Source of the DNA: Thainema sp.
GTDB lineage: Bacteria > Cyanobacteriota > Cyanobacteriia > Phormidesmidales > Phormidesmidaceae
Assembly: GCA_052168235.1 (NCBI GenBank)
Contig: JBQLZK010000003.1
Span: 32,001-96,000, forward strand
Direction of reading: 5' to 3'
DNA: 64,000 bases
Shown piece by piece: positions 25,756 to 49,590 of this stretch (positions are counted from its first letter, which is position 1; every line of letters begins with the position of its first letter). The position numbers and the translations under genes are program-made. Under the pieces are notes generated by a model. That model worked only from the letters and a program-made list of their open reading frames with translations. It made no database searches and was not told where the DNA came from.

Positions 25756-25853
25756 CGGGTGCGTCATATATCTTGAAAACCAGCGTAGGAGCGGGTTAAA
25801 GAACGCGGATCTAACAAGGCAAAATCTTTGGAGTAGGGACACGGCAATGCCGT

Positions 25854-26124
25854 GTATGTATTTAGCGTAGCCGCATGATCCCCCGCTGTCGCCGCCCCCT
25901 TGAAAAAGGGGCTATACCACCGCTAACTCAAAGTCCCCCTTTTTAAGGTAGGGCTGATTCTCTAGCAGAATAATAATTCTGTAACTCCCAATTTATGGTT
26001 CTTTGCCAAAACGGGTTGAACGAGGAAATAGGACTTACGAGCATTTTCTTTTTTTAGAGAATCAGCCCTACCTTTTTAAGGGGGATTTAGGGGGATCGGT
26101 CAGAGTGTTTCGCTAAACAAGTAC
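25854..26124. mobile_element. MITE with CCCCC-TTTTTAA-GGGGG double-hairpin core, inserted in a REP
   Basis: Imperfect TIRs GTATGTATTTAGCG / CGCTAAACAAGTAC; 8-bp duplication AATGCCGT (25846-25853, 26125-26132). Confidence 0.75.
25948..26071. mobile_element. 124-bp MITE, copy 1
   Basis: Perfect 17-bp TIR GTAGGGCTGATTCTCTA/TAGAGAATCAGCCCTAC; flanking CTTTTTAAG duplication; identical to 49354-49477. Confidence 0.92.
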
Positions 26125-26186
26125 AATGCCGTGTCCCTACAGATGGAATAACTGACGGCGGCTATTTAAGTCATGACCACAAGCGG

Positions 26187-26732
26187 CTAAACGTTACCCA
26201 ACTTAATCAGCTCAACTGAATCGCGGCCATCTTCGGCCTGTAGATGTACCTTGACCTGCTCGTCCTTGGAGGTAGGCAGCTCCTTACCGACAAAGTCTGC
26301 ATGAATGGGCAGTGCCCGATGTCCCCGATCCACCAGAACCGCCAGCCAAATTGTCTCAGGCCGACCATATTCATTCACCGCATTCAGCGCCGCCCGAATC
26401 GTGCGACCGCTATAGATCACGTCGTCAACCAGCACAACATTATGAGCAGAAAGATCGAATGGAATTTTGGATTTGGCCGGAGTGCGGGCACCGATTTTAT
26501 CCAGGTCATCGCGAAAGAAGGTAATGTCAATCGCTCCGATCGCAGGTCGCACACCTTCTAGCATTTCAATCTGATCGGCTAAGCGGTGGGCTAGCGGCAC
26601 CCCACGGGTGTAGATGCCGATGAGGATTAAATTCTCGACGCTGCCAGCTTTCTCCAGAATTTGCGAAGCTAATCGGGTGATGGTGCGACGAATTTCTTCT
26701 TCTGAGAGAATTTCAATCGGTTCGGGGGTCAT
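26187..26732 (-). CDS. pyrR: PyrR regulator / uracil phosphoribosyltransferase
   Basis: [43 protein letters not shown]. Confidence 0.95.
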
Positions 26733-26881
26733 GGGGGTTAAAACCATCCGCTCAAACGATGCATATATCAAATCCTAAACCAGAAGACGCAATTCGCCGC
26801 TGCAGCCAGCGGCGAATTGCGTCTTCTATCAGGTGCAAGAGTTTAGATAGTTTAGGTGGAAAACTCGATACATCCGGTGAA

Positions 26882-27478
26882 TTAGGCAGAAGCGGGTGAA
26901 TCCGATTCACCCGCAGGCGTGGATTCGTCTTTGCTGCTGAGAAGGTTGCGTGCTTTCAGCGAGAGTCCGACCCGAGAAATGCCTGTAAATAGAATGCTCA
27001 CACCCAGCAGTGTACCCAGTAGCCAAGGCGCATTGAAGGGAAACTGGAACCAGATCATGCCACCTAAAATTAGGGTGATGATGCCGTTCGTTAGGGCCCA
27101 CGTCCAGTTTTGTCGGGGGCGTAAGCGGAAGGCTAGAATCAACTCAAACACGCCTTCGGTGAGCAAGAAGCTACCCAGCAGCAGCGTTAGCGTCAAAATT
27201 CCAGTGCGGGGATAGACAAACAGCATGAGTCCTGTAGCAATATACAGAACACCTAAGAGTGCTTTCCAAAGGGTGTTGCCTTCATCGCGAGTTTGATAGG
27301 CATAAACGAGCTTCGCCACCCCGGCTGAAATCAGAATCAACGCTAGCCAGGTTTCGACAAAGACGGTTGAAACGACGGGAAGTGCGATCGCAACTACCCC
27401 TAATACTGTTAATACAATCCCAGTCCAAAGGGCTCGGTTGCTAACCTGTTTCGGATTAACTGGAGCATCAGTTGCCAT
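26882..27478 (-). CDS. HdeD/DUF308 family membrane protein
   Basis: Six TM helices in two repeats with the G-LG-P pattern typical of HdeD. Confidence 0.85.
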   Translation of the reverse strand: MATDAPVNPKQVSNRALWTGIVLTVLGVVAIALPVVSTVFVETWLALILISAGVAKLVYAYQTRDEGNTLWKALLGVLYIATGLMLFVYPRTGILTLTLLLGSFLLTEGVFELILAFRLRPRQNWTWALTNGIITLILGGMIWFQFPFNAPWLLGTLLGVSILFTGISRVGLSLKARNLLSSKDESTPAGESDSPASA

Positions 27479-27674
27479 AAAAATATCTCTTTTTAACTGC
27501 ATCACGCATAGGCTAGAGAATTTTCGATCAGCACTGTTAGTCCCTCAAGGCAGATTGGAACTCGTCTCTAGTTATAGATTTTGAGCTGCTTCTATCTACA
27601 ATCAACTCAGAACCCAGAGCAATGCCTTGCCGCTCTGGGTTCTGAGACAAGTTACACACCTACAAAGTTGAAAA

Positions 27675-28703
27675 CTACAAGAAAACCCTGTAATCTTCGC
27701 CCAAAAACAATGCTCGTTCAGCTCGCCGCCGCCGAGTGAGGCCAGCGAGTACGCGACCACCCCCCTTATTCCAGCGCAGGAATTCCTCTGCTGCTGTACT
27801 GTAGTTGTTTTGATTGAGCAACCGCCGCAGCGTTGAACTAGCCAATGCACCAGCACCGACATTGTACGTAAAGGAAACCAGCGCAGAGAACTGGTCGGAA
27901 TTCAGCGGTACTTGAATATTGCTCGACACGGCCTGCTCAAATTTTCTCAGATCGTCCCTTAGTAAAGCTTCGGCTTCGGCTTTGGTAATTTGCATACCGG
28001 GACGAACGCCGCGAGTCGTGCCGTAGCCAATTGTCCAAACGCCGACCGCATCCAAGTAGGCTTTCAACCTTAATCCTTCAAAGGATTTCAGCAGGTGCAA
28101 CCCTTTGTCATTAATCTGTCCGGTTGACTGGAGTACGGCGGGTTGTGAAAGCTGTACGGGTCTTCCCTCCTGTAGCACCTCTACATGCAAAGCATAAACG
28201 TACCAAGTGTTGCGGCCTTGCAGGTGAATTTGCTGACCATCCCCATCTTGCCCCAGCGCTAGCTTCAGATGAGAACCATCCAGTGTGTAGCTGTTGAGCG
28301 GCATTGTCGTATTCGCTCTCACCAAATACTTTTGGCCATCTGGCAGGGCCGAGCTTTGGTCGGTGTTGAGCTTGAACCAGGTATCCGATTTAATTTTTAG
28401 CTGGAAGATACTGGGTTCATCGTCCGTAGTCGGCGGAAAAAGGTTAATCTCTTCACCATTTCGCAAAATATCAACAGCTGGCTCGTAGACAAACCAGGTA
28501 TTGCGACCCTTGAAAAAGATCTGCTGTCCCTCATTGTTCTGGCCAAGCGTCATGCGCAGATGATTGCCCACAAGCGAATAGGCAGCTAAGGGAAGTTCCG
28601 TGCCAGCCTCAATATATTGCCGCTGACTATCGGGCAGCGTTGCCCCCTGATCAGTCGTGAGTTTCAACCAGGTATCAAGCACAAACTTGACGGAATAAGA
28701 CAT
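27675..28703 (-). CDS. GH24 (phage-type) lysozyme with two N-terminal repeat domains
   Basis: FEGLRLKAYLDAVGVWTIGYG (E-x8-D-x5-T), FSALVSFTYNVG, GLTRRRRAE; duplicated ~80-aa DTWxK...GRNTW domain. Confidence 0.9.
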   Translation of the reverse strand: MSYSVKFVLDTWLKLTTDQGATLPDSQRQYIEAGTELPLAAYSLVGNHLRMTLGQNNEGQQIFFKGRNTWFVYEPAVDILRNGEEINLFPPTTDDEPSIFQLKIKSDTWFKLNTDQSSALPDGQKYLVRANTTMPLNSYTLDGSHLKLALGQDGDGQQIHLQGRNTWYVYALHVEVLQEGRPVQLSQPAVLQSTGQINDKGLHLLKSFEGLRLKAYLDAVGVWTIGYGTTRGVRPGMQITKAEAEALLRDDLRKFEQAVSSNIQVPLNSDQFSALVSFTYNVGAGALASSTLRRLLNQNNYSTAAEEFLRWNKGGGRVLAGLTRRRRAERALFLGEDYRVFL

Positions 28704-28827
28704 GGTAGAGCACCTTCAGAGTAAAAGTATGGAAAAACTGCGGCAACACCCATTTTGCAGAGCAGTTTTAACCTAATAGTGACCAACCAAGCCTTTAAAA
28801 TTAATATTCGGTCAGATTTTTACTCAT

Positions 28828-30135
28828 CTACAGCGGCTTGCCCATGGGCATGACCAGCATCTTATCGACGCGGTTGCCGTCCATATCCATTACTTCAAAC
28901 CGGAGGCCGCCCCATTCAAAATGATCGGCAGCAACCGGAATACGGCCCAAGTGAGTAATCACAAAACCGCCCAGGGTTTGATAGTTGCCCATTTCTTCCC
29001 CTGGTAAGCGGCTAAGTTGAAATAGATCCTTGAATTTTTCAATAGATACCATACCGTCAAGCAGCCAAGAGCCATCTTCTCGCTGTACGGCAGAGGTGTC
29101 ATCGGACTGACCAACGGAGGGCAAATCGCCAATAATTGCTTCCAAGATGTCGTTGAGCGTGACGATGCCCTGAATCACACCGTACTCATCAACTGCGATC
29201 GCAATATGGGTATCCGACTGCTTGAACATCTCCATGATCCGCAGCGCCCGAGTGGTTTCTGGCACAAACAGCGGTTGGCGCAGAGCCGAGGTCAAATCCA
29301 TCGGTTCGCCTGACATGCTGCGAGCCAGTAGATCGGTGATATGCACCACACCTAGCACGTTATCCAGCGTGTTTTGGCAAACGGGAAAGCGCGAGTGATC
29401 ACTTTGGGTAATCTTGAGCCGATTCTCGTCGGCAGAGCTGTTGAGATTGAGCCAAACAATATCGGGTCGCGGCGTCATCAAGGCGCTGATCGGCTGATCG
29501 TCCAGGCGAAAGATGCGTTCCACCATATCTTGCTCAGCGGCCTCAAACATGCCCGCTTCTCGCCCTTGTTCCAGCAGCACCTTAATTTCGTCTTCCGTCA
29601 CCAGCGGCTCGGTTTCTGTCGGGCCAACCCCAAACAGCTTTAAGCCCAATTCTGTAGACGCGCTGAGTAAGCGGACGGCAGGAGATGCGATCGCAGAAAG
29701 TAACTGCATCGGAATTGCGATCGCAGAGGCAATTTTCTCGGGCGCATTAAGAGCAAGCCGTTTAGGGATCAGCTCTCCAACGACGAGGGATAAATAGGTA
29801 ATCAGCAGCACCACGGCCAGCAAGCTCAATGTGGCACTAAAGGGTGCGAGAGCCGGAATTTGACTAAACAGTTCGGAGAGTGACGTAGACAGCGTGGCAC
29901 CACCAAAGGCACCGGCCAAAATCCCCACCAGCGTAATGCCGATTTGCACCGTCGAGAGAAAGCGATTGGGGCTATTGGCCAAATCCAGCGCGGCTTGTGC
30001 CCGCAAATCTCCTTGATTGGCCAACTGCTGGAGGCGGGTTTTACGGGCAGAGACAATGGCCATTTCGGACATGGCAAACAAGCCATTAGCCATTACCAGC
30101 AGCAAGATAACTAGAATTTCACTCGTTGTGGACAT
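28828..30135 (-). CDS. CNNM/CBS/CorC (hemolysin-family) membrane protein
   Basis: NGLFAMSEMA, GELIPK, HSRFPV, VDEYG and C-terminal CorC domain. Confidence 0.92.
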   Translation of the reverse strand: MSTTSEILVILLLVMANGLFAMSEMAIVSARKTRLQQLANQGDLRAQAALDLANSPNRFLSTVQIGITLVGILAGAFGGATLSTSLSELFSQIPALAPFSATLSLLAVVLLITYLSLVVGELIPKRLALNAPEKIASAIAIPMQLLSAIASPAVRLLSASTELGLKLFGVGPTETEPLVTEDEIKVLLEQGREAGMFEAAEQDMVERIFRLDDQPISALMTPRPDIVWLNLNSSADENRLKITQSDHSRFPVCQNTLDNVLGVVHITDLLARSMSGEPMDLTSALRQPLFVPETTRALRIMEMFKQSDTHIAIAVDEYGVIQGIVTLNDILEAIIGDLPSVGQSDDTSAVQREDGSWLLDGMVSIEKFKDLFQLSRLPGEEMGNYQTLGGFVITHLGRIPVAADHFEWGGLRFEVMDMDGNRVDKMLVMPMGKPL

Positions 30136-30517
30136 GCCTAAAGTGGCCTCGCGTCTCCAAAATAAATGAGTGGATCGTGGTGCGGAGTTAGATGTTTTGT
30201 TGAGGGGATTTTGCCGACTCAAACGAACATCATGAACCATTTGAAGAGTGCAATATTTGACTGTTAATCTCGGAACATTGTTAGAACACTTGTGGGTATA
30301 CCGTAGCTTGATTGGGAGGTCATCCCCTTAAGGGAAAAATGTACACGAAAAAACAAGTCTACCCTCTCTGGCGCTGCTTCATTATTAAATCGTGATTTGG
30401 TTGCGCTTGGCTTGCCCGAACCAAGTGCTCCTGCTCGAACCGCGCTGTATGACTACAATAAGATGCATAAAGAAAGATTAAAGACACCCGTGATGGGGCT
30501 TCACACTAAAAATCCTC

Positions 30518-33500
30518 ATGTCCTTTTCTTCAATTACTCGCGCACTCGGACGATCAAACCTAACCACTGAACTGCTGGAGAAGCTGAATCAGCAGGGTGA
30601 ACTTACGCTAAACGGGATTGCTCGTTTACCGAAAGGGCTGGTCAGCTCAGCGCTCGCTCAAAACCAGACGCAACCCTTAGTCATCGTGACGGCGACGCTG
30701 GAAGAAGCGGGACGTTGGGCAGCCCAGCTCGATGCGATGGGCTGGCAGACGGTGCATTTTTATCCCACATCAGAATCGTCGCCCTACGAGCCGTTTGATA
30801 CCGAGGCCGAGATGACCTGGGGGCAAATGCAGGTGCTGGCTGATTTGATGCGAAGTCGGACTGGACAGGGATCCGAGGCTCCAGTTGATCCGTCGGCGAA
30901 TGGGAAAGTGAACGGTGGAAAAGGGAATGGTAAATCGGGCGGTAAGCTGGATGCACCGTTTGCCATTGTCGCGGCTGAGCGGGCGCTGCAGCCGTTATTG
31001 CCGCCCGTTGAGGTTTTTCAGGAATACTGCGTCAACGTGTGCCAAGGGGATGAGCTAAACCTCAAATCTCTGTCTCATCGCCTCGCTCGTTTGGGCTACG
31101 AGAAAGTTTCTCAGGTTGAGTTGGAAGGGCAGTGGAGCCAGCGCGGTGACATCATTGACGTGTTTCCGGTTGCGTCTGAACTGCCTGTTCGACTAGAGCT
31201 GTTTGGAGACGAGGTGGATCAGATTCGCGAGTTTGATCCCGCCAGTCAGCGATCGCTAGACAAAATCAACCAAATTACGCTGACGGCCACCAGCTTTTCA
31301 CCCATTGTTTTCGATGCGCTACAGGACAAAGGACTGCTGGAGCGACTGCCCGTTTCCGACGAAGAGCAGGAGCAGTTGAGCACCGGACAGCCAATTGAGG
31401 GAATGCGGCGTTTCCTGGGGCTGGCCTTTGAGCAAACGGCCTCGCTGCTGGATTATTTGCCCGACAATACGCTGATTGCCCTGGATGAACCGGAACAGTG
31501 CCGCGCCCATAGCGATCGCTGGTTGGAACACGTTGAGGATCACTGGCTGGAAGTCAATTCCCATTTGCTTTCAAGCTCCAACGCTCAATCTAACCAAGAC
31601 GCGTTCGTCAAAATTCACCGCTCCTTTGATGATTCTTTGGCCGAAATGGAGCGGTTCCAGCGGCTTAACTTATCAGAAATTGCAGAAGAAAATACTGGGC
31701 TAAATCTAGCTAGTCGCCCATTCCCGGCCATTCCGCATCAGTTTGGTAAGTTAGCTGAGACGTTACGGGAGGAGCGCGATCGCAACTTCTCGATCTGGCT
31801 GGTATCGGCTCAGCCGTCTCGCTGCGTGGCGCTGCTGCAGGAGCATGACTGTCCGGCTCAGTTTGTGCCCAATCCTAGAGATTATCCGGCGATTGACAAG
31901 CTGCAAACCCAGCATACACCTGTAGCAGTCAAGTATTCGGGACTGGCGGAGTTAGAAGGGTTTGTGCTGCCTACGTTCCGCTTAGTCGTTGTCACCGACC
32001 GCGAGTTCTTTGGTCAGCACACGCTGGCCACGCCTAGCTACGTGCGAAAGCGGCGGCGGGCGGCCTCCAAGCAGGTTGATCCGAATAAGCTGCGGCCTGG
32101 TGATTTTGTCGTGCATCGCAACCACGGCATTGGCCAGTTCATCAAGCTGGAAAGCCTGACGATCAACAACGAAACGCGGGAGTACCTGGTTCTCAAGTAC
32201 GAAGATGGTCTGCTGCGGGTGGCAGCGGATCAGGTGGGTTCGCTCTCCCGCTTCCGCAGTACGGGCGGTGAGCGACCGACGCTGAACAAGATGTCCGGCA
32301 AAGCCTGGGAGCGCACTAAGAGCAAAGTCCGCAAGGCCATTAAGAAAGTGGCGGTGGATCTGCTCCAGCTCTACGCGCAGCGGGCGCAGAATACGGGCTA
32401 TTCCTACCCAGAAGACATGCCTTGGCAGGAGGAACTGGAGGATTCGTTCCCCTATCAGCCGACGCCGGATCAGCTCAAGTCGGTGCAGGACGTGAAGCGG
32501 GACATGGAAAGCGAGCGGCCAATGGATCGGCTAGTCTGTGGCGATGTAGGCTTTGGTAAAACGGAAGTCGCGATTCGGGCCATTTTCAAAGCCATTACCG
32601 CCGGAAAGCAAGTGGCGCTACTGGCTCCCACCACGATTTTGACCCAGCAGCACTACCACACGCTGAAGGAGCGGTTTGCGCCCTATCCCATCCAGGTTGG
32701 TCTGCTCAACCGTTTCCGGACAGCTAGTGAACGCAAGGACATTCAGCAGCGGCTGGCGACGGGTGAGCTAGATGTGGTGGTGGGGACGCACCAGCTTCTA
32801 GGCAAAGCGGTTCAGTTCAAAGACTTGGGCCTGCTGGTGGTGGACGAAGAACAGCGGTTCGGCGTTAACCAGAAAGAAAAAATCAAGGCGATGAAAACCC
32901 AGGTGGACGTACTCACCCTCAGCGCTACGCCGATTCCTCGGACGCTCTACATGGCGCTGTCAGGGGTGCGGGAAATGAGCCTGATTACTACGCCACCGCC
33001 GTCTCGTCGGCCTATTAAGACCCATCTTTCACCCTACGATCCGGAAACGGTGCGCTCAGCCATTCGCCAAGAACTGGATCGGGGTGGCCAGGTGTTTTAC
33101 GTGGTGCCCCGCGTCGAGGGCATCGAAGAAATTTCCGCTCGCCTGCGGGAAATGGTGCCCAGCGCTCGTTTGGCAGTAGCACATGGCCAAATGCCAGAGG
33201 GTGAACTGGAAGCAACGATGCTGGCCTTCAGCACGGGCGAGGCCGACATTCTGGTCTGTACGACGATTATCGAATCGGGACTGGATATTCCCCGCGTCAA
33301 CACGATTCTGATTGAAGATGCTCAGCGGTTTGGTTTGGCTCAGCTCTACCAACTGCGGGGTCGCGTCGGGCGGGCGGGTATTCAAGCCCATGCCTGGCTG
33401 CTGTATCCCAAGCAAAGTTCCTTGACCGATAAGGCCCGGAAGCGGCTGCGAGCCATTCAGGAATTTACCCAGCTCGGTTCCGGCTATCAGCTAGCGATGC

Positions 33501-34111: not shown

Positions 34112-34416
34112 ACCCATTCATGCCCAGGTTACAACACCGTTTCTGCAAGTTGTCTTGATATCGCTGCAGTCAACTCTGTTAGGGACACGGACATTTTGTG
34201 GCACGGCAAAGCCGTGCCACAAAATGTCATAACCAATATGACTATCGCTAAGCTTGAGGTGATCTGTTCCTGATCTTTGATGTGATCTGTGTCAGTTTTC
34301 GGTGGTTTGGGCACCCTGATTTTATATTCCCTTAAGATCTGCCTTCGACCTGCCTTGGAATGTCTAAGGGTAGGGAGACTCTACTCCCCCAATCCAAAGC
34401 AAGAAAAACTACTGAC

Positions 34417-39313: not shown

Positions 39314-39335
39314 CGGATGATCGGAGGAGAATGGT

Positions 39336-40898: not shown

Positions 40899-40909
40899 AT
40901 CTAAAAAGT

Positions 40910-40946: not shown

Positions 40947-40948
40947 CT

Positions 40949-42496
40949 CTAAACTAAATTACTTAGTGGTAGCTGCGATCGCACAATTTTTCCCTGAGCA
41001 TTACGCGGTAACTGCTCCACCATTAGCCAGCATTTGGGATGTTTATACTTGCTGAGCTGAGTTGCGATCGCGCTTCGTAACTTCTGCTCAATTCTCTCCC
41101 GATCGGTATCAACTCCCGGCACCCAAATCGCCGTCACAGCTTGCCCCCACTCAGCATCCGGTACACCCACCACGCAGACATCAGCAACCAAACCTGTCGC
41201 TCGAATCACCGCTTCCACTTCTTCCGGAAACACGTTTTCGCCACCTGTGATGATCTTGGTGCTGTTGCGGCCCACGATGTGGAGATTGCCATCAGCGTCG
41301 AGATAGCCTTGGTCGTCGGGTTGGAAGGAGTGGATGGGTGGGAGGGTGGATGGGTGGATGGGTGGATGGGTGATGGGGAGAAAGTTGGTTGTGGGTTGGA
41401 GCGATAAATAGCCGAGAGCTAAAGATTGCGCCTGAATCCTGATTTGTCCAGGCTGTCCGGGCGGCAATATGGCTCCAGTTTCATCATGAATCGCGATCTC
41501 AGCATGGGGAAGCACCCGACCGCAGCTTTCGTTTCCAGCTAGGAAATCTTGAGGTTGCAGCGTGGCAACCTGGGATGCGGTTTCAGTCATGCCGTAGGTG
41601 GGAGCCAAGGGCAAACCCAACTGACGCGCCTGACTGAACAACTGCGGCCAAGCCGCTCCACCGCCAAGGAGTATGGCTTTCAGTGTAGCGAGCCAGGGGA
41701 GGAGGGGCAAGGGTGAATGGGGTGAGGAGTGAGGAGTGAGGAGTGAGGGAGTAGATGGGTGGATGGGTGGATGGGTAGATGAATTTTGAGCTTTGAGTTT
41801 TGAGTTTTGAGTGAGTAGGAGGCGTTGGAGTTGAGTGGGGACGAGGGAGAGGAACCAGTTAGAGTCTGCTGTCTCGAAGAGAGTTATGCGTTGTCCCTGC
41901 TGGAGTTCGCGAAAGGGTTGGATGATCAGTTGGCCACCGGAAATTAGCGATCGCAGTACCTGCATCAAGCCGCTCACGTGATACAGCGGCAGCGTACAGT
42001 AGCATGACACCGCATCCACTTGAAAATGTTGCTGAAAGCCTCGCATAGAAGCGGTTAGCGTGTCCCAGGTATGAATTGCAAACTTGATGTCTCCGGATGA
42101 TCCGCCTGTGGGGATGAGAATGGCGTTGCGGGGGAGGGTTGATGGTGAGTTGGTTAATAGTGAATGGTGAATGATTGGTGATTGGAAAATGGAGAGGGGA
42201 GTGTCTGACCAGATGATGTCCGGTTTGATGAGTTGGGCCACCTGCTGCCATTCGCGATCGCGCCAGCCCGGATTCGCCAGAACCAGCACACAATCCCGAC
42301 TTCCCGCCGCTAGCAATCCCGCTAGAAACCGCACAGGCTCCGCCTCCGCCAACAGCACAACAGGTTGAGCATTCCGTGATTTAACCTGATCTAGCTCCCG
42401 CCACTTCGCCTCAATCAAGCGCTGCAAAGCATCCAGATCACCATTAATCCACCAGTTCTTCAGCCAACACCCCTCCAAATACGAAGCCCAGTCCAT
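40949..42496 (-). CDS. menE: 2-succinylbenzoate-CoA ligase
   Basis: PTGGSSG, LPLYHVSG, SLVPTQL, YGMTE, GGENVFPEEVE, LPRNAQGK; downstream of menA-menC. Confidence 0.9.
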   Translation of the reverse strand: MDWASYLEGCWLKNWWINGDLDALQRLIEAKWRELDQVKSRNAQPVVLLAEAEPVRFLAGLLAAGSRDCVLVLANPGWRDREWQQVAQLIKPDIIWSDTPLSIFQSPIIHHSLLTNSPSTLPRNAILIPTGGSSGDIKFAIHTWDTLTASMRGFQQHFQVDAVSCYCTLPLYHVSGLMQVLRSLISGGQLIIQPFRELQQGQRITLFETADSNWFLSLVPTQLQRLLLTQNSKLKAQNSSTHPPIHPSTPSLLTPHSSPHSPLPLLPWLATLKAILLGGGAAWPQLFSQARQLGLPLAPTYGMTETASQVATLQPQDFLAGNESCGRVLPHAEIAIHDETGAILPPGQPGQIRIQAQSLALGYLSLQPTTNFLPITHPPIHPSTLPPIHSFQPDDQGYLDADGNLHIVGRNSTKIITGGENVFPEEVEAVIRATGLVADVCVVGVPDAEWGQAVTAIWVPGVDTDRERIEQKLRSAIATQLSKYKHPKCWLMVEQLPRNAQGKIVRSQLPLSNLV

Positions 42497-42552
42497 CTAC
42501 ACCTAAACCCCAATTCTTTACAACCCATCCACCCATCTACCCATCCACCCAT

Positions 42553-43536
42553 CTACCCTCCCACTCTCTCCCACAATTCCTCCGCCTCCAACCCATCCCA
42601 ATCATCCCCAAACCAATGCCCTACGCCAAAGCCAACCGCCAGATCTGGGGAGTTTAAATCCACAGCTAAGCTCAATGCCGCCTGTCTACCAATAACTGTT
42701 TCAAAAACGGTCGAAAATACCAAACGAATCGGATGCTGCTGACAGAACTGGTGCAGTTTCCGGGGTGAACCTGCGATCGCAGATTTAACCACAAAAATTC
42801 CTCGCCAGCCTTTCTGATAACAATCCTGTAACTGCGTCAGCGTCGCCACCGATTCATCTAGTGCCAGCGGCGTTTGATACTGCTCCGCCAGGGTTTGCAT
42901 GGATATAAATTGATCAACAGATAACGGTTGTTCTAGGAACTCGATAAGGTTGCGATCGCACCATTCCAACCATCGATGCGCGTCTTCTACAGTCAGTCCA
43001 CCATTGGCATCAAGCCGCAGTTTTGTATCGGGTGAAAAACGCTGAATTAACTCATTGAGCCACGCTTGTTCCATAACCCGATCCGCCACGCCGATTTTGA
43101 CTTTGAACGTGTGATAGCCCTGCTGATACAGCGATGAATAGGTAGTTAACGCCGCTTTTCCAGTGGGCAAAAGCCCACAGAATTCAAGCGAATTAGAGAA
43201 AAGAAAAGAATGAGTCAGAGGTGCAATTCTCTTTGAGGCAGCAGAATTAAACGCCGATTCAAAACCCATCTGAGTCGCAGGCAGCGTATCCGGAATCTGA
43301 TTAACACAATCAGGCGTCAGCGTCTGAGGCAGTTGCTCACAAAAGGCCAGCGCATCTGCAAGGGATTCGGAGCCAAACCACTCTAACGGCGCAATCTCAC
43401 CAAAACCGACTTCCCCTTGCTCATCCGTAACCTTGAGCAAAATTCCTTCCCGCGCTGTCCAAGCACCATGATGCGATCGCAAAGGCTGCCGAAATGAACG
43501 ACGATAGGGCAAATACTCAACCGCCACCTGACCCAT
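42553..43536 (-). CDS. menC: o-succinylbenzoate synthase
   Basis: GEIAPL, KVKIG, LRLDANG, EQP, ALDES enolase-superfamily motifs; men operon context. Confidence 0.92.
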   Translation of the reverse strand: MGQVAVEYLPYRRSFRQPLRSHHGAWTAREGILLKVTDEQGEVGFGEIAPLEWFGSESLADALAFCEQLPQTLTPDCVNQIPDTLPATQMGFESAFNSAASKRIAPLTHSFLFSNSLEFCGLLPTGKAALTTYSSLYQQGYHTFKVKIGVADRVMEQAWLNELIQRFSPDTKLRLDANGGLTVEDAHRWLEWCDRNLIEFLEQPLSVDQFISMQTLAEQYQTPLALDESVATLTQLQDCYQKGWRGIFVVKSAIAGSPRKLHQFCQQHPIRLVFSTVFETVIGRQAALSLAVDLNSPDLAVGFGVGHWFGDDWDGLEAEELWERVGG

Positions 43537-43600
43537 CTCAACCAAGCAATCACCATCAACCATCAACTATTACTATTAACCATTAACTACTCACCATCAC

Positions 43601-44563
43601 CTACCCCAAAACAAACCCCAAACACAATAAAACACCGCTAACAAAGTGAAAATGAATTGCATAAAATTTGCAGTTACTGACTCGCTCTGGCTGATCGTGG
43701 TTCTGTGACACATGGCGATAGAGCCGAACAGCTAGCGGAAAACTCAATACGGTAATCAGTGTCCAAACAGGAAATAAACCTGCCAAAACACAACCAATAA
43801 CGTAAACAAAAACACTGCCACAAATCCACGTTAAAAGTTCCGAGCCTCGTAACGTTCCCAAACGGACAATGGGTGATGTTTTTCCAGCTTGAATATCGTC
43901 TTCTACCTGATGGAAATGGGAGCAGAATAAGACTAAGCTTGTTGTGATTCCTAATGGGATTGATGCAGCTAAACTGTTCCAAGACCAAGATTGAGCTTGG
44001 CTATAGTAAACGGCTGCAAGCCCCACTGGGCCAAAGGCAAAGAAGCATAGAATTTCGCCTAATCCTTGATATCCCAAGCGAAACGGTGGCCCCTGATAGG
44101 CATAGCCCAAGAAGCAACACAGCAAAATCAAACCTAAAACAGTAAAGTCTTTCTGCCAAATTGAAATGCTAATAATCCCGGCAATACCTAACGCCAAAAG
44201 CAAATTACCGACAGCAAAAACAAGATTCTTTCTTTGCGTTAAATTCACCAGCGAGTGATGCTTATTCTGATCAATTCCAGTTTCAGAATCAAATACATCA
44301 TTACTAATATTTTCCCAGGCTAAGATTAGGATAGCCGCAATACAAAAAACACTAAAGATTGCCCCATTGAATAGGCCCGTTGTGTAGTAAGCAACTGCCG
44401 TTCCGAGACAAATCGGCATAATCGCTACACTATACATTGGCGGTTTGATGGCAGCCATCCAGAGCTTACGTCGAGAGGGCAGCGGCGCAACGTGAACGGA
44501 ATCATTTAGTACGTCATCGAATACGTCAGGTGCTGGAGTTGTCTTTAGGGATGGGTTGGTCAT
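43601..44563 (-). CDS. menA: DHNA phytyltransferase (phylloquinone synthesis)
   Basis: AAIKPPMYSVA, NDVFD, YQGPPFRLGY, HFHQVEDD. Confidence 0.93.
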   Translation of the reverse strand: MTNPSLKTTPAPDVFDDVLNDSVHVAPLPSRRKLWMAAIKPPMYSVAIMPICLGTAVAYYTTGLFNGAIFSVFCIAAILILAWENISNDVFDSETGIDQNKHHSLVNLTQRKNLVFAVGNLLLALGIAGIISISIWQKDFTVLGLILLCCFLGYAYQGPPFRLGYQGLGEILCFFAFGPVGLAAVYYSQAQSWSWNSLAASIPLGITTSLVLFCSHFHQVEDDIQAGKTSPIVRLGTLRGSELLTWICGSVFVYVIGCVLAGLFPVWTLITVLSFPLAVRLYRHVSQNHDQPERVSNCKFYAIHFHFVSGVLLCLGFVLG

Positions 44564-44699
44564 AGCAGGTGATTTGGACGGGTATAAAAGCTGATGGGCG
44601 GTGCCACCCTGCATTGGAAAGATGATTGTGGCGTTGATTCACTCAATCAGCATCTCCCGTTGCTTCCCATTTCATTGCGAATTTTCAAAAAAGTTTATA

Positions 44700-44782
44700 G
44701 GGGGTGGATGGGTAGGAGGGTGGATGGGTAGATGGGTAGGAGAGGATGAGGGTGTAAAGGGCTGTAGAGGCTGTAGAGGGAG
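44700..44782. repeat. GGATGGGT octamer and GGCTGTAGA nonamer tandem repeats
   Basis: Directly visible. The octamer also occurs inside menE and at 42523-42557. Confidence 0.8.
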
Positions 44783-44941
44783 TTGAAAAGACCAAGTTGT
44801 AAAACTTGTGGGGCTTGCAGGATGTAGGAGGAAGCGCGATAGGATTGCGGCAGAAGATAAGGATAATTGCACAGAATTACAGCGATCGCACTTTTTCAAA
44901 TCACATGAATCATTGCGATCGCACATTGAACGGTGAGATCT

Positions 44942-45748
44942 ATGAACATTGCAGACCTAATTCAGCAGTTTGAAGCTTGGGCCAATCCGGCTTGGCAGGA
45001 GGACTGGGATAACTGTGGCTGGCAGGTGCAGCCCGGCATCTTAGACCAGGAAGCGCGAGTGTTGGTGTGTCTGACGCCGACGCTGGCGGTCATGCAAGAT
45101 GCGATCGCACGTTGCCAGTCGGGAACGCCTGTGAACCTGATCTTTGCCCATCATCCACTGATTTTCAGTCCCGTTAAGTCGCTGCAACCGGGAAATCCCG
45201 TCGCCGACATGGTGGCGCTGGCCTACGAGCACCGGATCGGCGTATATACGGCTCATACCAACTTTGACCAGGTAGCAGACGGAACGGCGGACGTGCTGGC
45301 CCAGTTGTTGAACTTACAGGACTCGCAACCCGTAGTGCCGACTCAAGACGGCCTGGGTTACGGTCGCGTTGGCAACCTCTCTCCGGCCCTGTCGCTGGGC
45401 GAACTGCTCAGCCAAATTCAGCAAACGCTCAATCCGCCGGACTTAATCTACTCACCAGCCGCCGATCTGGATCAGCCCATCAATCGCTTAGCCGTCCTGG
45501 GCGGTTCAGGAGCCAGCTTTCTCTCCGCCGTCGCCAAAACCGGAGCGCAAGCCTATCTCACCTCCGACTGCAAGTTTCACCAATTTCAAGAAGCCCGCGA
45601 TCGCAACCTTATCCTCATCGATGCTGGACATTACGCTACCGAGCGACCAGCCTGTGCAAGATTAGTCAAACGTCTAGAAGCAATCGGTGTAAACTGGGCA
45701 CAGCTTAGCGATCAGGACGAAGATTTTCGCCAGTTTTTCCAATCATGA
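44942..45748 (+). CDS. Nif3-like dinuclear metal-centre protein
   Basis: WDNCG, HHPLIF, HTNFD, GGSG, DAGHYATE. Confidence 0.93.
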   Translation: MNIADLIQQFEAWANPAWQEDWDNCGWQVQPGILDQEARVLVCLTPTLAVMQDAIARCQSGTPVNLIFAHHPLIFSPVKSLQPGNPVADMVALAYEHRIGVYTAHTNFDQVADGTADVLAQLLNLQDSQPVVPTQDGLGYGRVGNLSPALSLGELLSQIQQTLNPPDLIYSPAADLDQPINRLAVLGGSGASFLSAVAKTGAQAYLTSDCKFHQFQEARDRNLILIDAGHYATERPACARLVKRLEAIGVNWAQLSDQDEDFRQFFQS

Positions 45749-46875
45749 CTGAATTGAACCCAACCCCGGCTGAAACCACCACGCTGCTCCAAACGCCGCT
45801 CCATCAAGAAGCTCAGAAGCTCAAAGCCCGGATGGTCGATTTTTCGGGTTGGGAAATGGCCGTCCAGTACAGCGGCATTCGCCAAGAGCATGAAGCGGTG
45901 CGGCAAAATGCAGGCGTGTTTGACATTTCCCATATGGGCAAATTCACCCTGGTCGGCAACAATCTGATCGAACATCTGCAAGCACTGGTGCCCACCGATT
46001 TAAGCAAGCTCAAACCCGGTCGCGCCCAGTACACCGTCCTGCTTAATGAAAACGCAGGCATCATCGACGACCTGATTATTTACTATCAAGCGACGGACGA
46101 CGAAAAGCGCGATCGCATTTTCCTGATCGTCAACGCTGCCACCACCACCAAAGACAAGTACTGGCTACTCGATCACCTGCCCCAAGGACAAGTCGCCTTC
46201 ACCGATCTCTCACGGGACAACGCCCTATTTGCCGTCCAGGGGCCAAAAGCGATTGAAAAGCTGCAAACCATCGCTGAAGCGGATTTATCCAAAGTCAAAC
46301 GCTTCGCCCACATCGAGACTCGGCTCGCAGGCTACGACGCCTTCATGGCCCGCACGGGCTACACAGGCGAAGACGGCTTCGAAATCATGGTAGACAACAG
46401 CGACGCCACGAAACTGTGGCGGATACTCCTCGATTTGGACATCACGCCTTGCGGCCTGGGCGCACGGGACACTCTCCGTCTCGAAGCCGCACTGGCGCTC
46501 TACGGTCAAGATATTGACGACACCACCACTCCCCTAGAAGCGGGTCTAGGCTGGCTCGTACACCTCGATCGCAAAGGCGATTTTATTGGACGCTCCGTTC
46601 TGGAAAAGCAGCAAGAAAACGGCGTGGAACGCTGCCTCGTTGGTCTACAAATGCAGGGCCGCAATATCGCCCGTCATAACTACTTCGTCCTACACGAGGG
46701 CACATCCGTCGGTATCGTCACCAGCGGCACCCTCGCACCCACAGTCGGTCAGCCAATCGCGCTGGCCTACGTCCCCACAGAACTCAGTAAGGTCGGCCAA
46801 GAGCTTGAGGTCGAAATTCGCGGTAAAACCTATCCTGCCAAGGTCGTGAAGCGCCCATTCTATCGAGCCGATTAG
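45745..46875 (+). CDS. gcvT: Glycine cleavage system aminomethyltransferase
   Basis: FDISHMG, GIIDD, RTGYTGEDGFE, GLGARDTLRLEA; ATGA overlap with the nif3 gene. Confidence 0.97.
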   Translation: MTELNPTPAETTTLLQTPLHQEAQKLKARMVDFSGWEMAVQYSGIRQEHEAVRQNAGVFDISHMGKFTLVGNNLIEHLQALVPTDLSKLKPGRAQYTVLLNENAGIIDDLIIYYQATDDEKRDRIFLIVNAATTTKDKYWLLDHLPQGQVAFTDLSRDNALFAVQGPKAIEKLQTIAEADLSKVKRFAHIETRLAGYDAFMARTGYTGEDGFEIMVDNSDATKLWRILLDLDITPCGLGARDTLRLEAALALYGQDIDDTTTPLEAGLGWLVHLDRKGDFIGRSVLEKQQENGVERCLVGLQMQGRNIARHNYFVLHEGTSVGIVTSGTLAPTVGQPIALAYVPTELSKVGQELEVEIRGKTYPAKVVKRPFYRAD

Positions 46876-46909
46876 ATAAAGTGCGATCGCACTTTGACCT
46901 CATTGATCC

Positions 46910-48058
46910 TTAAACTTTGATTGTCTCAAATCGCTTCATCAGCGCGGGGCGATTTTCATAGTTTGACTTCAAACGCTCAAACCGATCGCGAAACTCAGGT
47001 AATTTTCCCTGCTGCTCGGCCACATCGCGTAAATCGTGCAGCAATTGCGTCGCCTCATCATACGGCTTTGCCTGTTTCCGCTGCAGCAGTTCAACGATCT
47101 GATCCCAGGCTTGATCAGCTTTGGGCGCAAAATTTTCCAAATACTTCAGGCGCTTTTTGCGAGCCGCTTCTTGCTCCTTCTGACGCTTTTTCTCAGCCGC
47201 TGCTCGTTCTTTCTTCAGACGCTTATCTCTCAGCTCATCTGCGATCGCACATAGTTCAGATAGTCGTCGCGTACCAGCAGCCACCTGTGGTGCAGCTTGA
47301 TCAGCCCCTGCCAACTCCTTCAGCCGACGGATCAACTGTAAATCAACCCGTGGCTCCTGCCGAATGAGCTTAATTAAAAACTCCTGTCGCTCAGCTTCTG
47401 ACAGTTCAGGTAGCCAGTTTTCCAGCGGTGATTCTGCCCCCGATTTCTGTTTAGGACTCGCCTGAGCAGCAGTGGCAACCAGATCCGGATCGAGTTCGAC
47501 CAGTTCCATGAATGCTTTGAGCGGAGCAGAAAGCTGACCTAAATTGGGCGGCACAGGTGGCTCAACCGGATCATCCTCCAGCTCATAGCCAGCAAACTGA
47601 TCGATCACGCGCAGCCACGCCAAGTAGAGCAACCGCAGATCACCCTTCAGCAAATCGTCCCGCAGCGGGGCAATCTGTGAAAGCCATCCGTCACCCTCTG
47701 CCCAGCCACTCCAACCATCGTCGCTAATCTCAATATTGAGTACAATGTGCTGCTTGGTCTGGGTGCAGGTAATCGCATGGGTCAGACAATATGGCTCAAA
47801 CCACTCCAGATCTGCGATCGCAGATGGCAGTCGAAACATAAACTGCCACGAACCCCAGTTGGCAATGTAGAACATGATGTCGAAATATTTGGCCAAGATC
47901 TGTTCTGCATCGCCCGGAAAGTCACTGTAGTTATAGACAAAAACGGCTCGGCTAGAGCTGATCTGAACCCGACTAGACAGCTTCTGAATAACAGCTTGTT
48001 CTTGCGATGTCAGCGGACGATCAACAGCTAGAAACTCGTAATATTGGTATTCGCTCAT
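46910..48058 (-). CDS. Conserved hypothetical protein (MSEYQYYEF...DRPL family)
   Basis: 382 aa; aromatic N-terminal domain (YIANWG, GDLRLLYLAWL), coiled coil and helical C-terminus. Confidence 0.8.
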   Translation of the reverse strand: MSEYQYYEFLAVDRPLTSQEQAVIQKLSSRVQISSSRAVFVYNYSDFPGDAEQILAKYFDIMFYIANWGSWQFMFRLPSAIADLEWFEPYCLTHAITCTQTKQHIVLNIEISDDGWSGWAEGDGWLSQIAPLRDDLLKGDLRLLYLAWLRVIDQFAGYELEDDPVEPPVPPNLGQLSAPLKAFMELVELDPDLVATAAQASPKQKSGAESPLENWLPELSEAERQEFLIKLIRQEPRVDLQLIRRLKELAGADQAAPQVAAGTRRLSELCAIADELRDKRLKKERAAAEKKRQKEQEAARKKRLKYLENFAPKADQAWDQIVELLQRKQAKPYDEATQLLHDLRDVAEQQGKLPEFRDRFERLKSNYENRPALMKRFETIKV

Positions 48059-48337
48059 CGGTCTGACCAGTTGGGGCGGGCTACTAATGAGATTAACGGA
48101 TAATACCGTTCCTCGTTAATAGGAATACAGATTCGGGGCTGGTTGACTGACAAAACTCTTGCTCTCCCTGTTCTTTCGGAGGTTGGCTAGAGCGCCAGCG
48201 AAACCCAACAAAACCGGGATTGAGGAGCTTCATTGGTGCTGAGAAATATGTGCTTCATCGCCGATAGCCAATCGGTTAGACTACACTTGAACTGTAAAAA
48301 CACTTAAACTTCGATTGAATACCGCGAGAGTTTCATT

Positions 48338-48517
48338 ATGTTTCCACTGATTGGTATTTTGGCCCTGGGTGGCTATGGCTATGGTGCCTTTCGTTTCTGG
48401 AAAGGCTTCAATCGCACTAACTTCACCCAAAATCGCGCTGTACTGACCCTGCTGTGGCCCCTGTTTTTGACCAATAAAAACTATCGCCAAAATTTCAACA
48501 AAGCATTAAAGGGATAG
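48338..48517 (+). CDS. Small conserved cyanobacterial membrane protein (59 aa)
   Basis: Not in ORF track. MFPLIGILALGGYGYGAFRFWKGFNRTNFTQNRAVLTLLWPLFLTNKNYRQNFNKALKG; stops 3 nt before the next ATG. Confidence 0.8.
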   Translation: MFPLIGILALGGYGYGAFRFWKGFNRTNFTQNRAVLTLLWPLFLTNKNYRQNFNKALKG

Positions 48518-48520
48518 GGA

Positions 48521-49261
48521 ATGACCAATCGCCCCCAAAACAGTTGGTTCAATAGTTCCGCGTCTCAACATCTCGGTAGCCAAGCCGCGAACTGGCAAAA
48601 GCAAATTACTGCAATCGCACAGCGCTACAACAAAGAATATCAGCGGCAACCGTTCGATCTGCCCGCCGAAGTTGAAGCCATGCCCGTTTTTCACGAATGG
48701 GCCTCCGGAGCGCTAGCCGCCAAAAAATCAACCCCATTTTGGGAACTGGCGAAACCCAAGAAAAATCAGCACTGCCTGGATCTGGGCTGCGGCGTCAGCT
48801 TTCTGATTTATCCCTGGAACGAGTGGCAAGCCTACTTCCACGGTCAGGAAATCAGCAGCGTCGCGCAGGAAACCCTCAATTCCCGCAGCCCCCAGCTCAA
48901 CTCCAAGCTGTTCAAAGGTGCGCGTCTCGCTCCGGCTCATAAGCTGGAGTACGATGCAGATTATTTTGATCTTGCGATCGCAGTTGGCTTTAGCTGCTAC
49001 TACGACTTGGACTACTGGCAAACGGTACTAGAAGAAGTGCAGAAGGTTTTGAAACCCGGTGGCGCATTTGTATTTGACGTGCTGAACCCTGACATTCCCC
49101 TCGCCGAAAACTGGGCCATTCTAGAAACCTACCTCGGCGCAGAAGTCTTTCTCGAATCCATAGCCGACTGGAAAGCCTTAATTAAAAAATCTGGCGCAAA
49201 AGTTACCAAGCAGCGCGAAGGTGAGCTATTCCACGGTTTCTGCGTCAAGTGGCCAACCTAG
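48521..49261 (+). CDS. Class I SAM-dependent methyltransferase
   Basis: CLDLGCGVS, FDLAI, VLKPGG. Confidence 0.88.
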   Translation: MTNRPQNSWFNSSASQHLGSQAANWQKQITAIAQRYNKEYQRQPFDLPAEVEAMPVFHEWASGALAAKKSTPFWELAKPKKNQHCLDLGCGVSFLIYPWNEWQAYFHGQEISSVAQETLNSRSPQLNSKLFKGARLAPAHKLEYDADYFDLAIAVGFSCYYDLDYWQTVLEEVQKVLKPGGAFVFDVLNPDIPLAENWAILETYLGAEVFLESIADWKALIKKSGAKVTKQREGELFHGFCVKWPT

Positions 49262-49282
49262 ATCCGCTTCCCCAAACACCCC

Positions 49283-49578
49283 CTACCGTGTATACACATC
49301 TTGATCACTGCTTCTCAACCCCGAAATGATCCCCCCTTGCCCCCCTTAAAAAGGTAGGGCTGATTCTCTAGCAGAATAATAATTCTGTAACTCCCAATTT
49401 ATGGTTCTTTGCCAAAACGGGTTGAACGAGGAAATAGGACTTACGAGCATTTTCTTTTTTTAGAGAATCAGCCCTACCTTAAAAAGGGGGGAATTGACTC
49501 AAAGTTCCCCCTTTTTAAGGGGGATTTCGGGGGATTTCAGCGTTGAAACGGAGTCTAGGGACTTGTTATACACAGTAG
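49283..49578. mobile_element. MITE (CTACyGTGTATA TIRs) with CCCCC..GGGGG double-hairpin core
   Basis: CTACCGTGTATA...TATACACAGTAG; flanking duplication CCCAAACACCCC (49271-49282, 49579-49590). Confidence 0.8.
49354..49477. mobile_element. 124-bp MITE, copy 2
   Basis: Identical to 25948-26071; flanking CTTAAAAAG duplication. Confidence 0.92.
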
Positions 49579-49590
49579 CCCAAACACCCC

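Follow-up and report, generated by a model that had tools for sequence, protein, structure and literature searches.

A 122-bp ISAs1-type MITE at hairpin tips in Thainema sp., with candidate rules for target choice and element length

Contig JBQLZK010000003.1 of Thainema sp. carries, within the 64,000-nucleotide stretch analyzed here (the window), two copies of a 122-bp ISAs1-type MITE with a 16-bp perfect terminal inverted repeat (TIR) and an 11-bp target site duplication (TSD). A genome-wide copy check, proposed in the first-pass annotation, added a third identical copy (G000:C2:158925-159048), bringing the genome total to three, and in every case the insertion point is the tip of a hairpin of the form CCCCC-TT-N3-AA-GGGGG. 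Probably this is an element moved by an ISAs1 transposase, with a preference for G:C-run targets and with a length held by helical phase. Since other IS families already provide examples of nesting within palindromes, the ISAs1 case is a modest extension; what it offers beyond this is two rules, open to test, for a family of transposases that has received little study. Under the target rule an 11-12 bp cut falls between G:C runs, and ISAs1 lineages range from near-random to near-exclusive use of hairpins; the length rule is seemingly obeyed by 21 natural families. If the latter reflects phase selection, then MITE length spectra would report, at no cost, on the geometry of the transpososome and on the in vivo helical repeat, and 122 bp would be a compact mini-transposon design for cyanobacteria.

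The element and its likely transposase

The two copies within the window are 100% identical and flanked by CTTTTTAAG and CTTAAAAAG, both as first annotated, and a 17-bp terminal inverted match is present if the ends are set at 25948-26071 and 49354-49477. On that basis the element had been described as 124 bp long with a 17-bp TIR and a 9-bp TSD, the latter left ambiguous between 7, 9 and 11 bp. The outer bases are non-complementary in 11 of the 47 related insertions whose TSD is exact, and in G008 copies with identical interiors the outer base is G at eight ends and C at six. Because of these observations the outer G/C is assigned to the target rather than to the MITE, which is therefore corrected to 122 bp, with a TIR of 16 bp and a TSD settled at 11 bp; a 124-bp element with a 9-bp TSD, or one of 126 bp with 7 bp, is rejected, as the outer base tracks the target. 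The TSDs of the three copies are 11, 11 and 12 bp, the 12-bp one belonging to the C2 copy, which occupies the same kind of hairpin with a stem shorter by one C. The target is cut with an 11-12 bp stagger, as recorded in the TSD.

No ORF of at least 100 aa overlaps the element, as befits a short (<500 bp) MITE without a transposase ORF, and it has three features by which prokaryotic MITEs are recognized: a size below 500 bp, a TIR and TSD, and dispersed copies with empty sites. No known RNA family matches it above threshold (the best, a plant miRNA, scores 26 versus 171 bits), and no RNA holder is listed for the stretch. The first-pass view of a recently active, non-autonomous element agrees with the three identical copies and with the absence of the MITE from both orthologous loci in a congener (G001), where the hosts are missing as well; the apex position of both copies (Table 1) was confirmed, and the independence of their insertions is supported.

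Table 1. Coordinates within the window of the MITE copies, their target duplications, and the surrounding host elements and palindromes
Feature	Position	Strand	Note
ISAs1-type MITE copy 1, 122 bp	25949..26070	+	18-bp centre (26001-26018) between 52-bp arms; 16-bp TIR
Copy 1, left 11-bp TSD	25938..25948	+	apex of host A second hairpin
Copy 1, right 11-bp TSD	26071..26081	+	
Copy 2 of the ISAs1-type MITE, same sequence as copy 1	49355..49476	+	
Copy 2, left 11-bp TSD	49344..49354	+	apex of host B first hairpin
Copy 2, right 11-bp TSD	49477..49487	+	
Host MITE A, 138 bp empty, about 13-bp TIR, hairpin doublet	25854..26124	.	
First hairpin of host A, uninterrupted, slightly degenerate	25895..25911	.	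sequence
GTAG-type REP palindrome, left half	25833..25853	+	host A inserted into apex; 8-bp TSD 25846-25853
8-bp TSD (26125-26132) and right half of GTAG-type REP	26125..26140	+	
Host MITE B, 163 bp empty, about 14-bp TIR	49283..49578	.	
Second C5-TT-N3-AA-G5 hairpin of host B, intact	49507..49523	.	sequence

The resemblance of the ends to ISAs1 termini, tentative at first, is supported by a search for a full-length IS with the same TIR. This search found L018, a 1172-bp ISAs1 IS that matches the MITE at 16/16 TIR positions and both of whose ORFs exceed the NF033564 cut-off; the same TIR class occurs in L109, L165 and L232. All four of the TCTCT-ended ISAs1 elements that were placed in a tree group together in a single clade (support 100/99), and TCTCT-ended ISs have, where it can be seen, a TSD of 11-12 bp, the same as that of the MITE; the range given for the ISAs1 family in ISfinder is 8-10 bp. 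The element has ISAs1-type ends, it has multiplied recently, and homologous families occur across cyanobacteria.

No transposase had been noticed in the window, and indeed the ISAs1 transposase domain is absent from the entire contig; the assembly has four PF13808 matches, on contigs C97, C178, C171 and C11. Full-length ISAs1 elements with the MITE's TIR exist in relatives and none is present in the Thainema sp. assembly, from which the transposase of the TCTCT clade is absent also (the best tblastn matches, at 36-39%, are to C178). The ISAs1 resident on C178 belongs to a sister lineage, with a TIR match of 11/16, and uses the same target as the MITE. Because TIR and TSD length are shared, we infer from the sequence that the MITE would have been moved in trans by an ISAs1-family transposase--most likely one from the clade whose TIRs share the TCTCTA end, a clade that the draft lacks, and otherwise the resident one on C178. 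Only the TIR and an AGAAAA box are common to the MITE and the full-length ISs; an origin by internal deletion of a known IS is not borne out, as MITE positions 17-61 match the ends of nine full ISs at only 8-20 of 45 positions.

Host MITEs and choice of target

Both copies had been placed in a single host MITE family; hosts A and B are instead two unrelated families with different TIRs and TSDs and with only the hairpin cassette (C5-TT-N3-AA-G5) in common. Copy 1 lies in host A (138 bp, 8-bp TSD), and copies 2 and 3 in host B (~163 bp, ~10-bp TSD). Members of the host A family in this genome mostly measure about 137-165 bp, and the direct repeat of host B extends to as much as 12 bp at 49283..49578 and to about 10 bp in most family members; that of Nezha, a family characterized by a TIR shared with ISNpu3, is 10 bp long and resembles it. 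No autonomous parent of either host was found in 20 fetched regions and five genomes, and a collection of 72,556 plasmid records yielded 13 with fragments of the cassette and host ends only. The cassette has no GTAG or CGTC tag (i.e., it is an untagged REP-like palindrome), and the outer palindrome around copy 1 does have a GTAG tag; copy 1 is nested in three layers: MITE within host A within REP.

At a locus that appears orthologous to that of copy 1, run X4 covers host A and both of its unique flanks with zero depth at the MITE centre, no single contig spanning the site. Joints in runs X2 and X3 that skip 133 bp with the right geometry were rejected as a single-contig empty site, since the records differ by 3-8 letters; they are probably paralogous host A copies and were left uncounted.

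Target choice can be read from 66 insertions of relatives, 47 of which have an exact TSD (11 bp in 28, 12 bp in 15, 10 bp in two and 13 bp in two). Hairpin tips account for 20 of these 47 targets and non-hairpin C-run/G-run sites, with stems below 6 bp, for 27, several of which have C-runs on both sides and are unable to pair; a palindrome is thus broken at a fixed point in 20/47 cases across the class, versus 3/3 in the Thainema sp. genome. One 10-copy, 134-bp family uses almost exclusively non-repeat C-run/G-run targets. Under the favored reading, the paired transposon ends would attack an 11-12 bp target edged by G:C runs (CCC-C...G-GGG, on either strand), to which the C5-TT-N3-AA-G5 hairpins, whose spread is owed largely to two other MITEs, would be the best and commonest genomic match. 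Insertions into these hairpins would survive because they are intergenic, and a loose, symmetric sequence preference combined with selection would therefore produce the nesting, with no recognition of the host MITE; a safe-haven benefit as a result of selection is plausible.

A half-site matrix built from 26 non-hairpin targets of other genomes, which equates weight with insertion probability, puts 16% of the genome weight and 42% of the intergenic weight on hairpin tips, and a stricter matrix (21 targets) puts 20% on hairpins (4-63% in 25 bootstraps) versus 0.003% if uniform. Under the half-site model, three of three MITE copies within hairpins has p = 0.07, based on only three events. The comparison with the background frequency of the target motif proposed at first pass had a mixed outcome: all three copies are in the repeat, but p is about 0.12 given the 9-mer, because 67 of the 137 genomic CTTTTTAAG 9-mers already sit in such hairpins; by neither measure do these three events reach specificity above the motif background. 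Motif and repeat, in fact, coincide almost completely (76 of 77 C5-N7-G5 sites).

When the resident IS is included, five of six insertions are at hairpin tips (p = 0.05 under the half-site model), which, given that weight is taken as probability, leaves room for an additional structural preference. It is conceivable, though rather unlikely, that structure is the guide, in which case the transposase would favor the tips of palindromes that are extruded or bend easily (cruciforms), and the consensus of C/G runs would in part reflect those tips. Several unrelated elements of this genome do strike palindrome tips: an IS4-family element on C157 (NF033590) has 7 of 20 ends in the C5-TT-N3-AA-G5 hairpin and five more in a second palindrome family, and hosts A and B are themselves inserted in the tips of other palindromes; in one ISAs1 family of G008, moreover, 8 of 10 TSD-bearing copies are at stems of at least 6 bp. 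Against this stand the short stems and non-pairing C-run/C-run targets described above, as well as another ISAs1 in the Thainema sp. genome, 0/12 of whose ends lie in either hairpin family; tips are therefore not generic sinks for all ISAs1 elements. The first-pass suggestion of a safe haven, in the form of specific recognition of a host MITE family (MITE-on-MITE parasitism), seems very improbable. In its favor, every MITE copy, like all four hairpin-located ends of the resident ISAs1, is inside a host MITE, and host A is present without the MITE at the seemingly orthologous locus in run X4; but the two host families share nothing except the cassette, 56 of the 80 intact hairpins fall within these hosts regardless (24 being in neither), and the relatives land in solitary hairpins, in a different hairpin family and in non-repeat sites.

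Length classes among related families

The 21 homologous families comprise 14 at 121-123 bp and seven at 131-134 bp, with none at 124-130 bp, and are built from two 52-bp arms plus a spacer of 18 or 28-30 bp. Ten 122-bp families align without gaps, and median interior identity is 49% (11 families). The lengths were read after applying an arm-matrix filter trained on the 121-123 bp families, and the count therefore favors close kin. Left out were 20 of 41 metagenomic loci without the arm motif (111-164 bp, including 123, 124, 124, 127, 137 and 143), motif-less genomic classes of 115, 150, 167-174, 185 and 206-211 bp, a single degenerate copy of 120 bp, and a 306-bp locus made up of two MITEs. 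Some of the excluded metagenomic loci look like genuine MITEs of other types; two matches to viral contigs, both without the arm motif, were taken as chance. An older family in the Thainema sp. genome, found without the TIR pattern, measures 131, 132, 132, 133, 134 and 143 bp; a third length step is represented by one single copy, of 143 bp.

On the phase account, a transposase dimer would bind both 16-bp TIRs along with the subterminal AGAAAA box, which is also present in the full-length ISs. Pairing of the ends would require bending about 120 bp--that is, less than DNA's persistence length--so that only helically phased end distances would work well; such a limit would hold 14 diverged families at 121-123 bp and place the following class at 131-134 bp. 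The arm motifs (positions 35-41 and 46-52), which are specific to the MITEs, may aid bending or serve to bind an accessory protein. Phased A-tract curvature is rejected, as AA/TT dinucleotides have no 10-11 bp period (the peak is at 9), and so is selection on RNA structure, as arms pair no better with their own partners than with those of other families (permutation p = 0.61). Arm mismatches have no G-T versus A-C skew, and co-variation is limited to the central 7+7 positions (p = 0.002).

A sizable possibility, if one short of even, is that length is under no phase selection. The 122-bp class would then be one old element that has kept its length, and the additional 10-12 bp would arise mechanically, whether by slippage, from the footprints of TSDs or through a 28-bp REP captured as spacer. 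A TSD already measures 10-12 bp; two of the +11 variants, L342 and G000:C15, resemble TSD-sized tandem duplications, the one in L342 being an exact 11-bp duplication; the spacer of the older family is exactly one 28-bp GTAG REP; and helical phase across all 14 short same-TIR length classes, motif-less ones included, is not significant (Rayleigh p about 0.17). Yet families that are about 50% diverged by substitution have changed in length by almost only +/-1 bp, whereas MITEs longer than 270 bp with the same TIR show free length variation inside a genome (SD 12 and 32 bp); six of the seven long families have no tandem duplication; and the long class requires at least three label changes on well-supported branches, although a single origin for it is rejected only short of firmly (p-AU 0.057). 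That the relatives have almost only two lengths, separated by one turn of DNA, hints at a physical rule for the minimum length of a mobile element. More speculatively, the ISAs1 MITEs of cyanobacteria may constitute a natural helical-twist experiment, in which 52-bp arms are kept at 122, 132-133 and once 143 bp since short loops close only in phase, the arm motifs and co-varying central palindrome are selected for bending, and the G:C-run rule turns MITE-spread hairpins into self-renewing, harmless landing sites.

Comparison with known systems

Our literature search found no case of a helical-step length pattern in ISAs1 MITEs. The end-distance experiments on IS50 and IS1 are reportedly those of Goryshin in 1994 and of Lane in 1994. 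Together with the size periodicity of Paramecium IESs, they are presented as instances of helical-twist constraint (PMC3464196). As in the MITE families, these concern lengths below ~150 bp that peak at intervals of about 10 bp, a pattern interpreted as looping of DNA within the transpososome; those systems are ciliate excision substrates or engineered constructs, whereas here the families are natural bacterial MITEs, in which just two peaks are well filled and a third step has a single copy.

Published cyanobacterial MITEs include Nezha (about 130-170 bp), MaeMITEa-h (176-429 bp) and the MITEs of Anabaena sp. 90, which are mobilized in trans by an IS whose TIR is the same, at times one found only in another species (PMC3184786, PMC2779907, PMC3542288). 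Like the 122-bp MITE they are non-coding, TIR/TSD-bounded and multi-copy, and host B is, by description, similar to Nezha in size; the excerpts of these papers contain no tie to ISAs1 and no 122-bp class.

ISs that target REP sequences include IS1397, ISKpn1, IS621, IS1594, ISPsy8, ISPpu9/10 and ISRm22 (Tobes and Pareja 2006, PMC1525189; Delihas 2011, PMC3184786); PMC1525189 covers IS3, IS110, IS4, IS256 and IS5 and mentions ISAs1 0 times. Such ISs, like the MITE, land repeatedly on the axis of symmetry of a palindrome that is repeated between genes and from whose bases the TSD is formed. Their preference, as described there, is near 100%, whereas the MITE is putatively ISAs1-moved, non-autonomous and loose in its preference, with 27/47 of its relatives' targets off the tip. 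IS1111 is a member of the IS110 family. In Coxiella it sits in the GTAG REP of QMITE2 (PMC10969869), and this is likewise a mobile element nested within a MITE by way of a hairpin that the MITE carries. IS1111, however, is an autonomous IS with a different chemistry, whereas here a MITE nests within MITEs and, in copy 1, does so in three layers.

Ends, target duplications and ISAs1 affiliation

The two 124-bp sequences that the first-pass annotation reported as identical are so, with the flanks that it described, and a genome-wide BLASTN search of the Thainema draft (G000; 7.5 Mb, 205 contigs) found three full copies, all 100% identical--two in the window (contig C3, 32001-96000) and one on contig C2. 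Copy 1 is flanked by convergent genes, the downstream one encoding a phosphoribosyltransferase, and copy 2 lies between a methyltransferase gene and a CbiJ/CobK gene. As annotated, the insertions are at a hairpin tip: all three copies interrupt a C5-TT-N3-AA-G5 hairpin there, the stem being shorter at the C2 copy than at the window copies.

Paired elements from fetched loci were scored for target-site duplications (TSDs) with their ends fixed at YAGGG...CCCTR; 63 of 89 had a TSD, exact or with one mismatch, of 11 bp (35 elements), 10 bp (16), 12 bp (10) or 13 bp (2). The base outside YAGGG differs between identical copies (8 G and 6 C in one family of genome G008), and the outer two bases are non-complementary in 11 of 47 exact-TSD insertions, which rules out a length of 124 bp. 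Because of these TSD lengths and the variable outer base in relatives, the element is assigned 122 bp with 16-bp terminal inverted repeats (TIRs), and its copies have TSDs of 11, 11 and 12 bp. Thus, of the 7, 9 or 11 bp originally proposed, 11 bp stands (with 12 bp at the C2 copy), the relatives deciding against 7 and 9.

The tentative likeness to ISAs1 termini is borne out by a full-length 1172-bp IS in G008 (L018), which matches the TIR at 16/16 positions and both ORFs of which match the ISAs1 model NF033564 above its cut-off. Of named relatives with this TIR, an Elainellaceae MAG is the nearest. A tree of 12 C-terminal ORFs groups the four tested ISAs1 elements ending in ...TCTCTA/TCTTTA in one clade (support 100/99), which is represented in the congener G001 by L109 but has no member in the draft (tblastn best 36-39%). 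Also present in the draft is a sister-lineage ISAs1 with its body on C178 (NF033564 match; TIR match 11/16), four of whose six ends lie inside the same C5 hairpin as the MITE, the other two flanking an 11-bp TSD within C-rich DNA that resembles coding sequence. The MITE does not derive by simple deletion from any of the nine full ISs compared: outside the TIR only 8-20 of 45 positions match their ends.

The ISAs1 transposases on C178 and C171 are encoded, as in most relatives, by two overlapping ORFs divided at an A-run, which hints at slippage or programmed frameshifting. One G008 family includes copies with a single, intact ORF. HIP1 octamers are plentiful in the window and, with the Elainellaceae MAG, mark the source as cyanobacterial; the window's purine-rich tandem repeat clusters, some within or beside ORFs, are presumably of the cyanobacterial STRR type.

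Coordinates of the element and of associated features
Feature	Location	Detail
MITE copy 1	window 25949-26070	in host A
MITE copy 2	window 49355-49476	in host B
MITE copy 3	C2	in host B
GTAG-type REP	window 24946-24993	inverted relative to the REP holding host A
Purine-rich tandem repeats	window 9817-9914	units 8 bp and shorter
Purine-rich tandem repeats	window 41310-41392	units 8 bp and shorter
Purine-rich tandem repeats	window 41731-41797	units 8 bp and shorter
Purine-rich tandem repeats	window 42523-42575	units 8 bp and shorter
Purine-rich tandem repeats	window 44692-44750	units 8 bp and shorter
30-bp inverted repeat	window 18900-18960	near-perfect, intergenic
30-bp inverted repeat	window 57169-57231	near-perfect, intergenic
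Older MITE family	C107:2962-3093	complete copy
Older MITE family	C36:15451	complete copy
Older MITE family	C20:41408	complete copy
Older MITE family	C16:81257	complete copy
Older MITE family	C106:8478	complete copy
Older MITE family	C15:102599	complete copy
DUF559-like gene	G000:C165 (L381:106-510)	ends directly at a solitary C5 hairpin
GTAG-type palindrome, L376	G480:C1:964200-964600	22 pattern matches in genome
GTAG-type palindrome, L377	G803:C15:4900-5300	51 pattern matches in genome
GTAG-type palindrome, G738		4 pattern matches in genome

Host repeats and target choice

The copies do lie inside other MITEs, as proposed, but not in a single family: host A is 138 bp when empty, with an 8-bp TSD, host B is about 163 bp, with a TSD of about 10 bp, their TIRs differ, and only a central hairpin doublet is common to them. 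Host A is in turn inserted at the tip of a GTAG-type repeated extragenic palindrome (REP), so that copy 1 is nested three layers deep, and host B members are mostly at the tips of another palindrome. Of the 80 intact hairpins, host B contains 34 and host A 21, one is near both, and 24 lie outside the two. Neither MITE nor host is present at either of the orthologous loci in G001. In read run X4, contigs join host A to both unique flanks and no reads cover the centre of the MITE; at a depth of about 3, and with no contig spanning the site, this suggests that the host inserted first and the MITE later.

Targeting of a repeat family as a safe haven had been proposed, to be judged against the background frequency of the target. 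In G000 motif and repeat are inseparable, 67 of 137 CTTTTTAAG 9-mers lying within hairpins and 76 of 77 C5-N7-G5 sites being this hairpin. With a hairpin tip defined by a stem of at least 6 bp, 20 of the 47 exact-TSD insertions of the MITE class are at tips and 27 elsewhere, these non-hairpin targets having a C-run to the left of the cut and a G-run to its right, or else C-runs flanking it on either side. A half-site matrix built from 26 non-hairpin targets in other genomes gives hairpin tips 16% of the G000 weight and 42% of its intergenic weight; one from 21 stricter targets gives them 20% (4-63% over 25 bootstraps) versus 0.003% by position count. Under this model p = 0.07 for three of three MITE copies in hairpins and p = 0.05 for five of six when the resident IS is included. 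Hairpin insertion is thus mostly explained by a sequence-based half-site model, with room left for a structural bonus; the safe-haven proposal comes down to a loose target rule encountering an abundant hairpin.

Target specificity varies between ISAs1 lineages: a second ISAs1 in G000 has 0/12 ends in hairpins, and in G008 (L078-L097) one family has 8/10 TSD-bearing copies at hairpin tips and another 0/8, a natural pair for mapping target-recognition residues. These two families are co-resident, with near-identical TIRs. A multi-copy, 1482-bp IS4-family element (G000:C157, L378) has, as scored by pattern, 12/20 ends in two palindrome families--seven in this hairpin and five in another.

Same-TIR MITEs of 174-227 bp (L016, L009, L130, L288) enclose whole REP-like hairpin cassettes; ISAs1 MITEs are therefore also hosts and carriers of hairpins. 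The DUF559-like endonuclease locus is a possible source of the C5 hairpin family, a literature search finding nothing on a link between the two. The palindrome of L376, L377 and G738 (one genus) bears tandem 16-bp units, 14 bases of which match the ISAs1 TIR head to head; it may be a REP made from fused IS ends, or a convergence.

Two length classes

Because the first searches favoured equal length, open-gap TIR-pair searches were run over about 64-444 bp in 401 genomes and over 84-444 bp in overlapping sets of 173, 90 and 57 genomes; a metagenome search covered 105-165 bp (41 loci). A matrix of the arms (positions 17-52), trained on the families of 121-123 bp and with a 99th percentile of 0.5 for shuffled sequences, selected 66 insertions in 22 homologous families. 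With one composite excluded, 14 of 21 families fall at 121-123 bp, seven at 131-134 bp and none at 124-130 bp, a count that covers arm-motif carriers, the motif being absent from 20 of the 41 metagenomic loci and from several classes in the genomes. Nearly all consist of a central stretch of about 18 or 28-30 bp between two arms of 52 bp each. Ten 122-bp families align gap-free, although across 11 families of this kind the median interior identity is 49%. An older ISAs1-type family in G000, with diverged TIRs, has a central spacer that is exactly a 28-bp GTAG REP; it comprises six complete copies (131, 132, 132, 133, 134 and 143 bp) and 11 half copies, and a member occupies the G001 locus orthologous to copy 2.

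DDE transposition involves synapsis of the two ends by a dimer, together with a staggered cut at the target. An ISAs1-family transposase would move the MITE, looping would constrain the length of so short an element, and selection would leave only intergenic insertions. Constructs of IS50 and IS1 reportedly show helical periodicity. Same-TIR MITEs above 270 bp vary freely (within-genome length SD 12 and 32 bp), in agreement with what the twist model predicts for longer loops; across all 14 short classes, arm motif present or absent, helical phase does not reach significance (p about 0.17). The additional 10-12 bp could arise from a TSD-sized duplication rather than from phase, as favoured by the TSD itself being 10-12 bp long and by L342, whose additional 11 bp exactly duplicate one arm's inner end. 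The long class requires at least three label changes on starred branches, and the test of a single origin fails to reject it (p-AU 0.057).

Since the arms show no structural co-variation (p = 0.61) and the central 7+7 bases alone co-vary (p = 0.002), arms that bind protein around a small palindrome fit better than an RNA fold. The quantisation of length is the part that deserves experiment.

Comparison with known systems

Full-text literature searches and passages of PMC2779907, PMC3733652, PMC3542288, PMC11602168, PMC3281130 and PMC5756416 gave no ISAs1-derived MITE and no ISAs1 targeting of REPs; subscription papers, ISfinder and supplements, outside this scope, may list such elements. Helical steps in bacterial MITE lengths are likewise absent from those searches and passages; among short excised elements, the IESs of Paramecium show helical length periodicity (PMC3464196). 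In Coxiella, an IS is nested in a REP of a MITE (PMC10969869). The nesting observed here is real, and its behaviour is largely of an already known sort: insertion at REP axes is published for IS3, IS110, IS4, IS256 and IS5 (PMC1525189; PMC3184786), whereas here the probable mover family is ISAs1.
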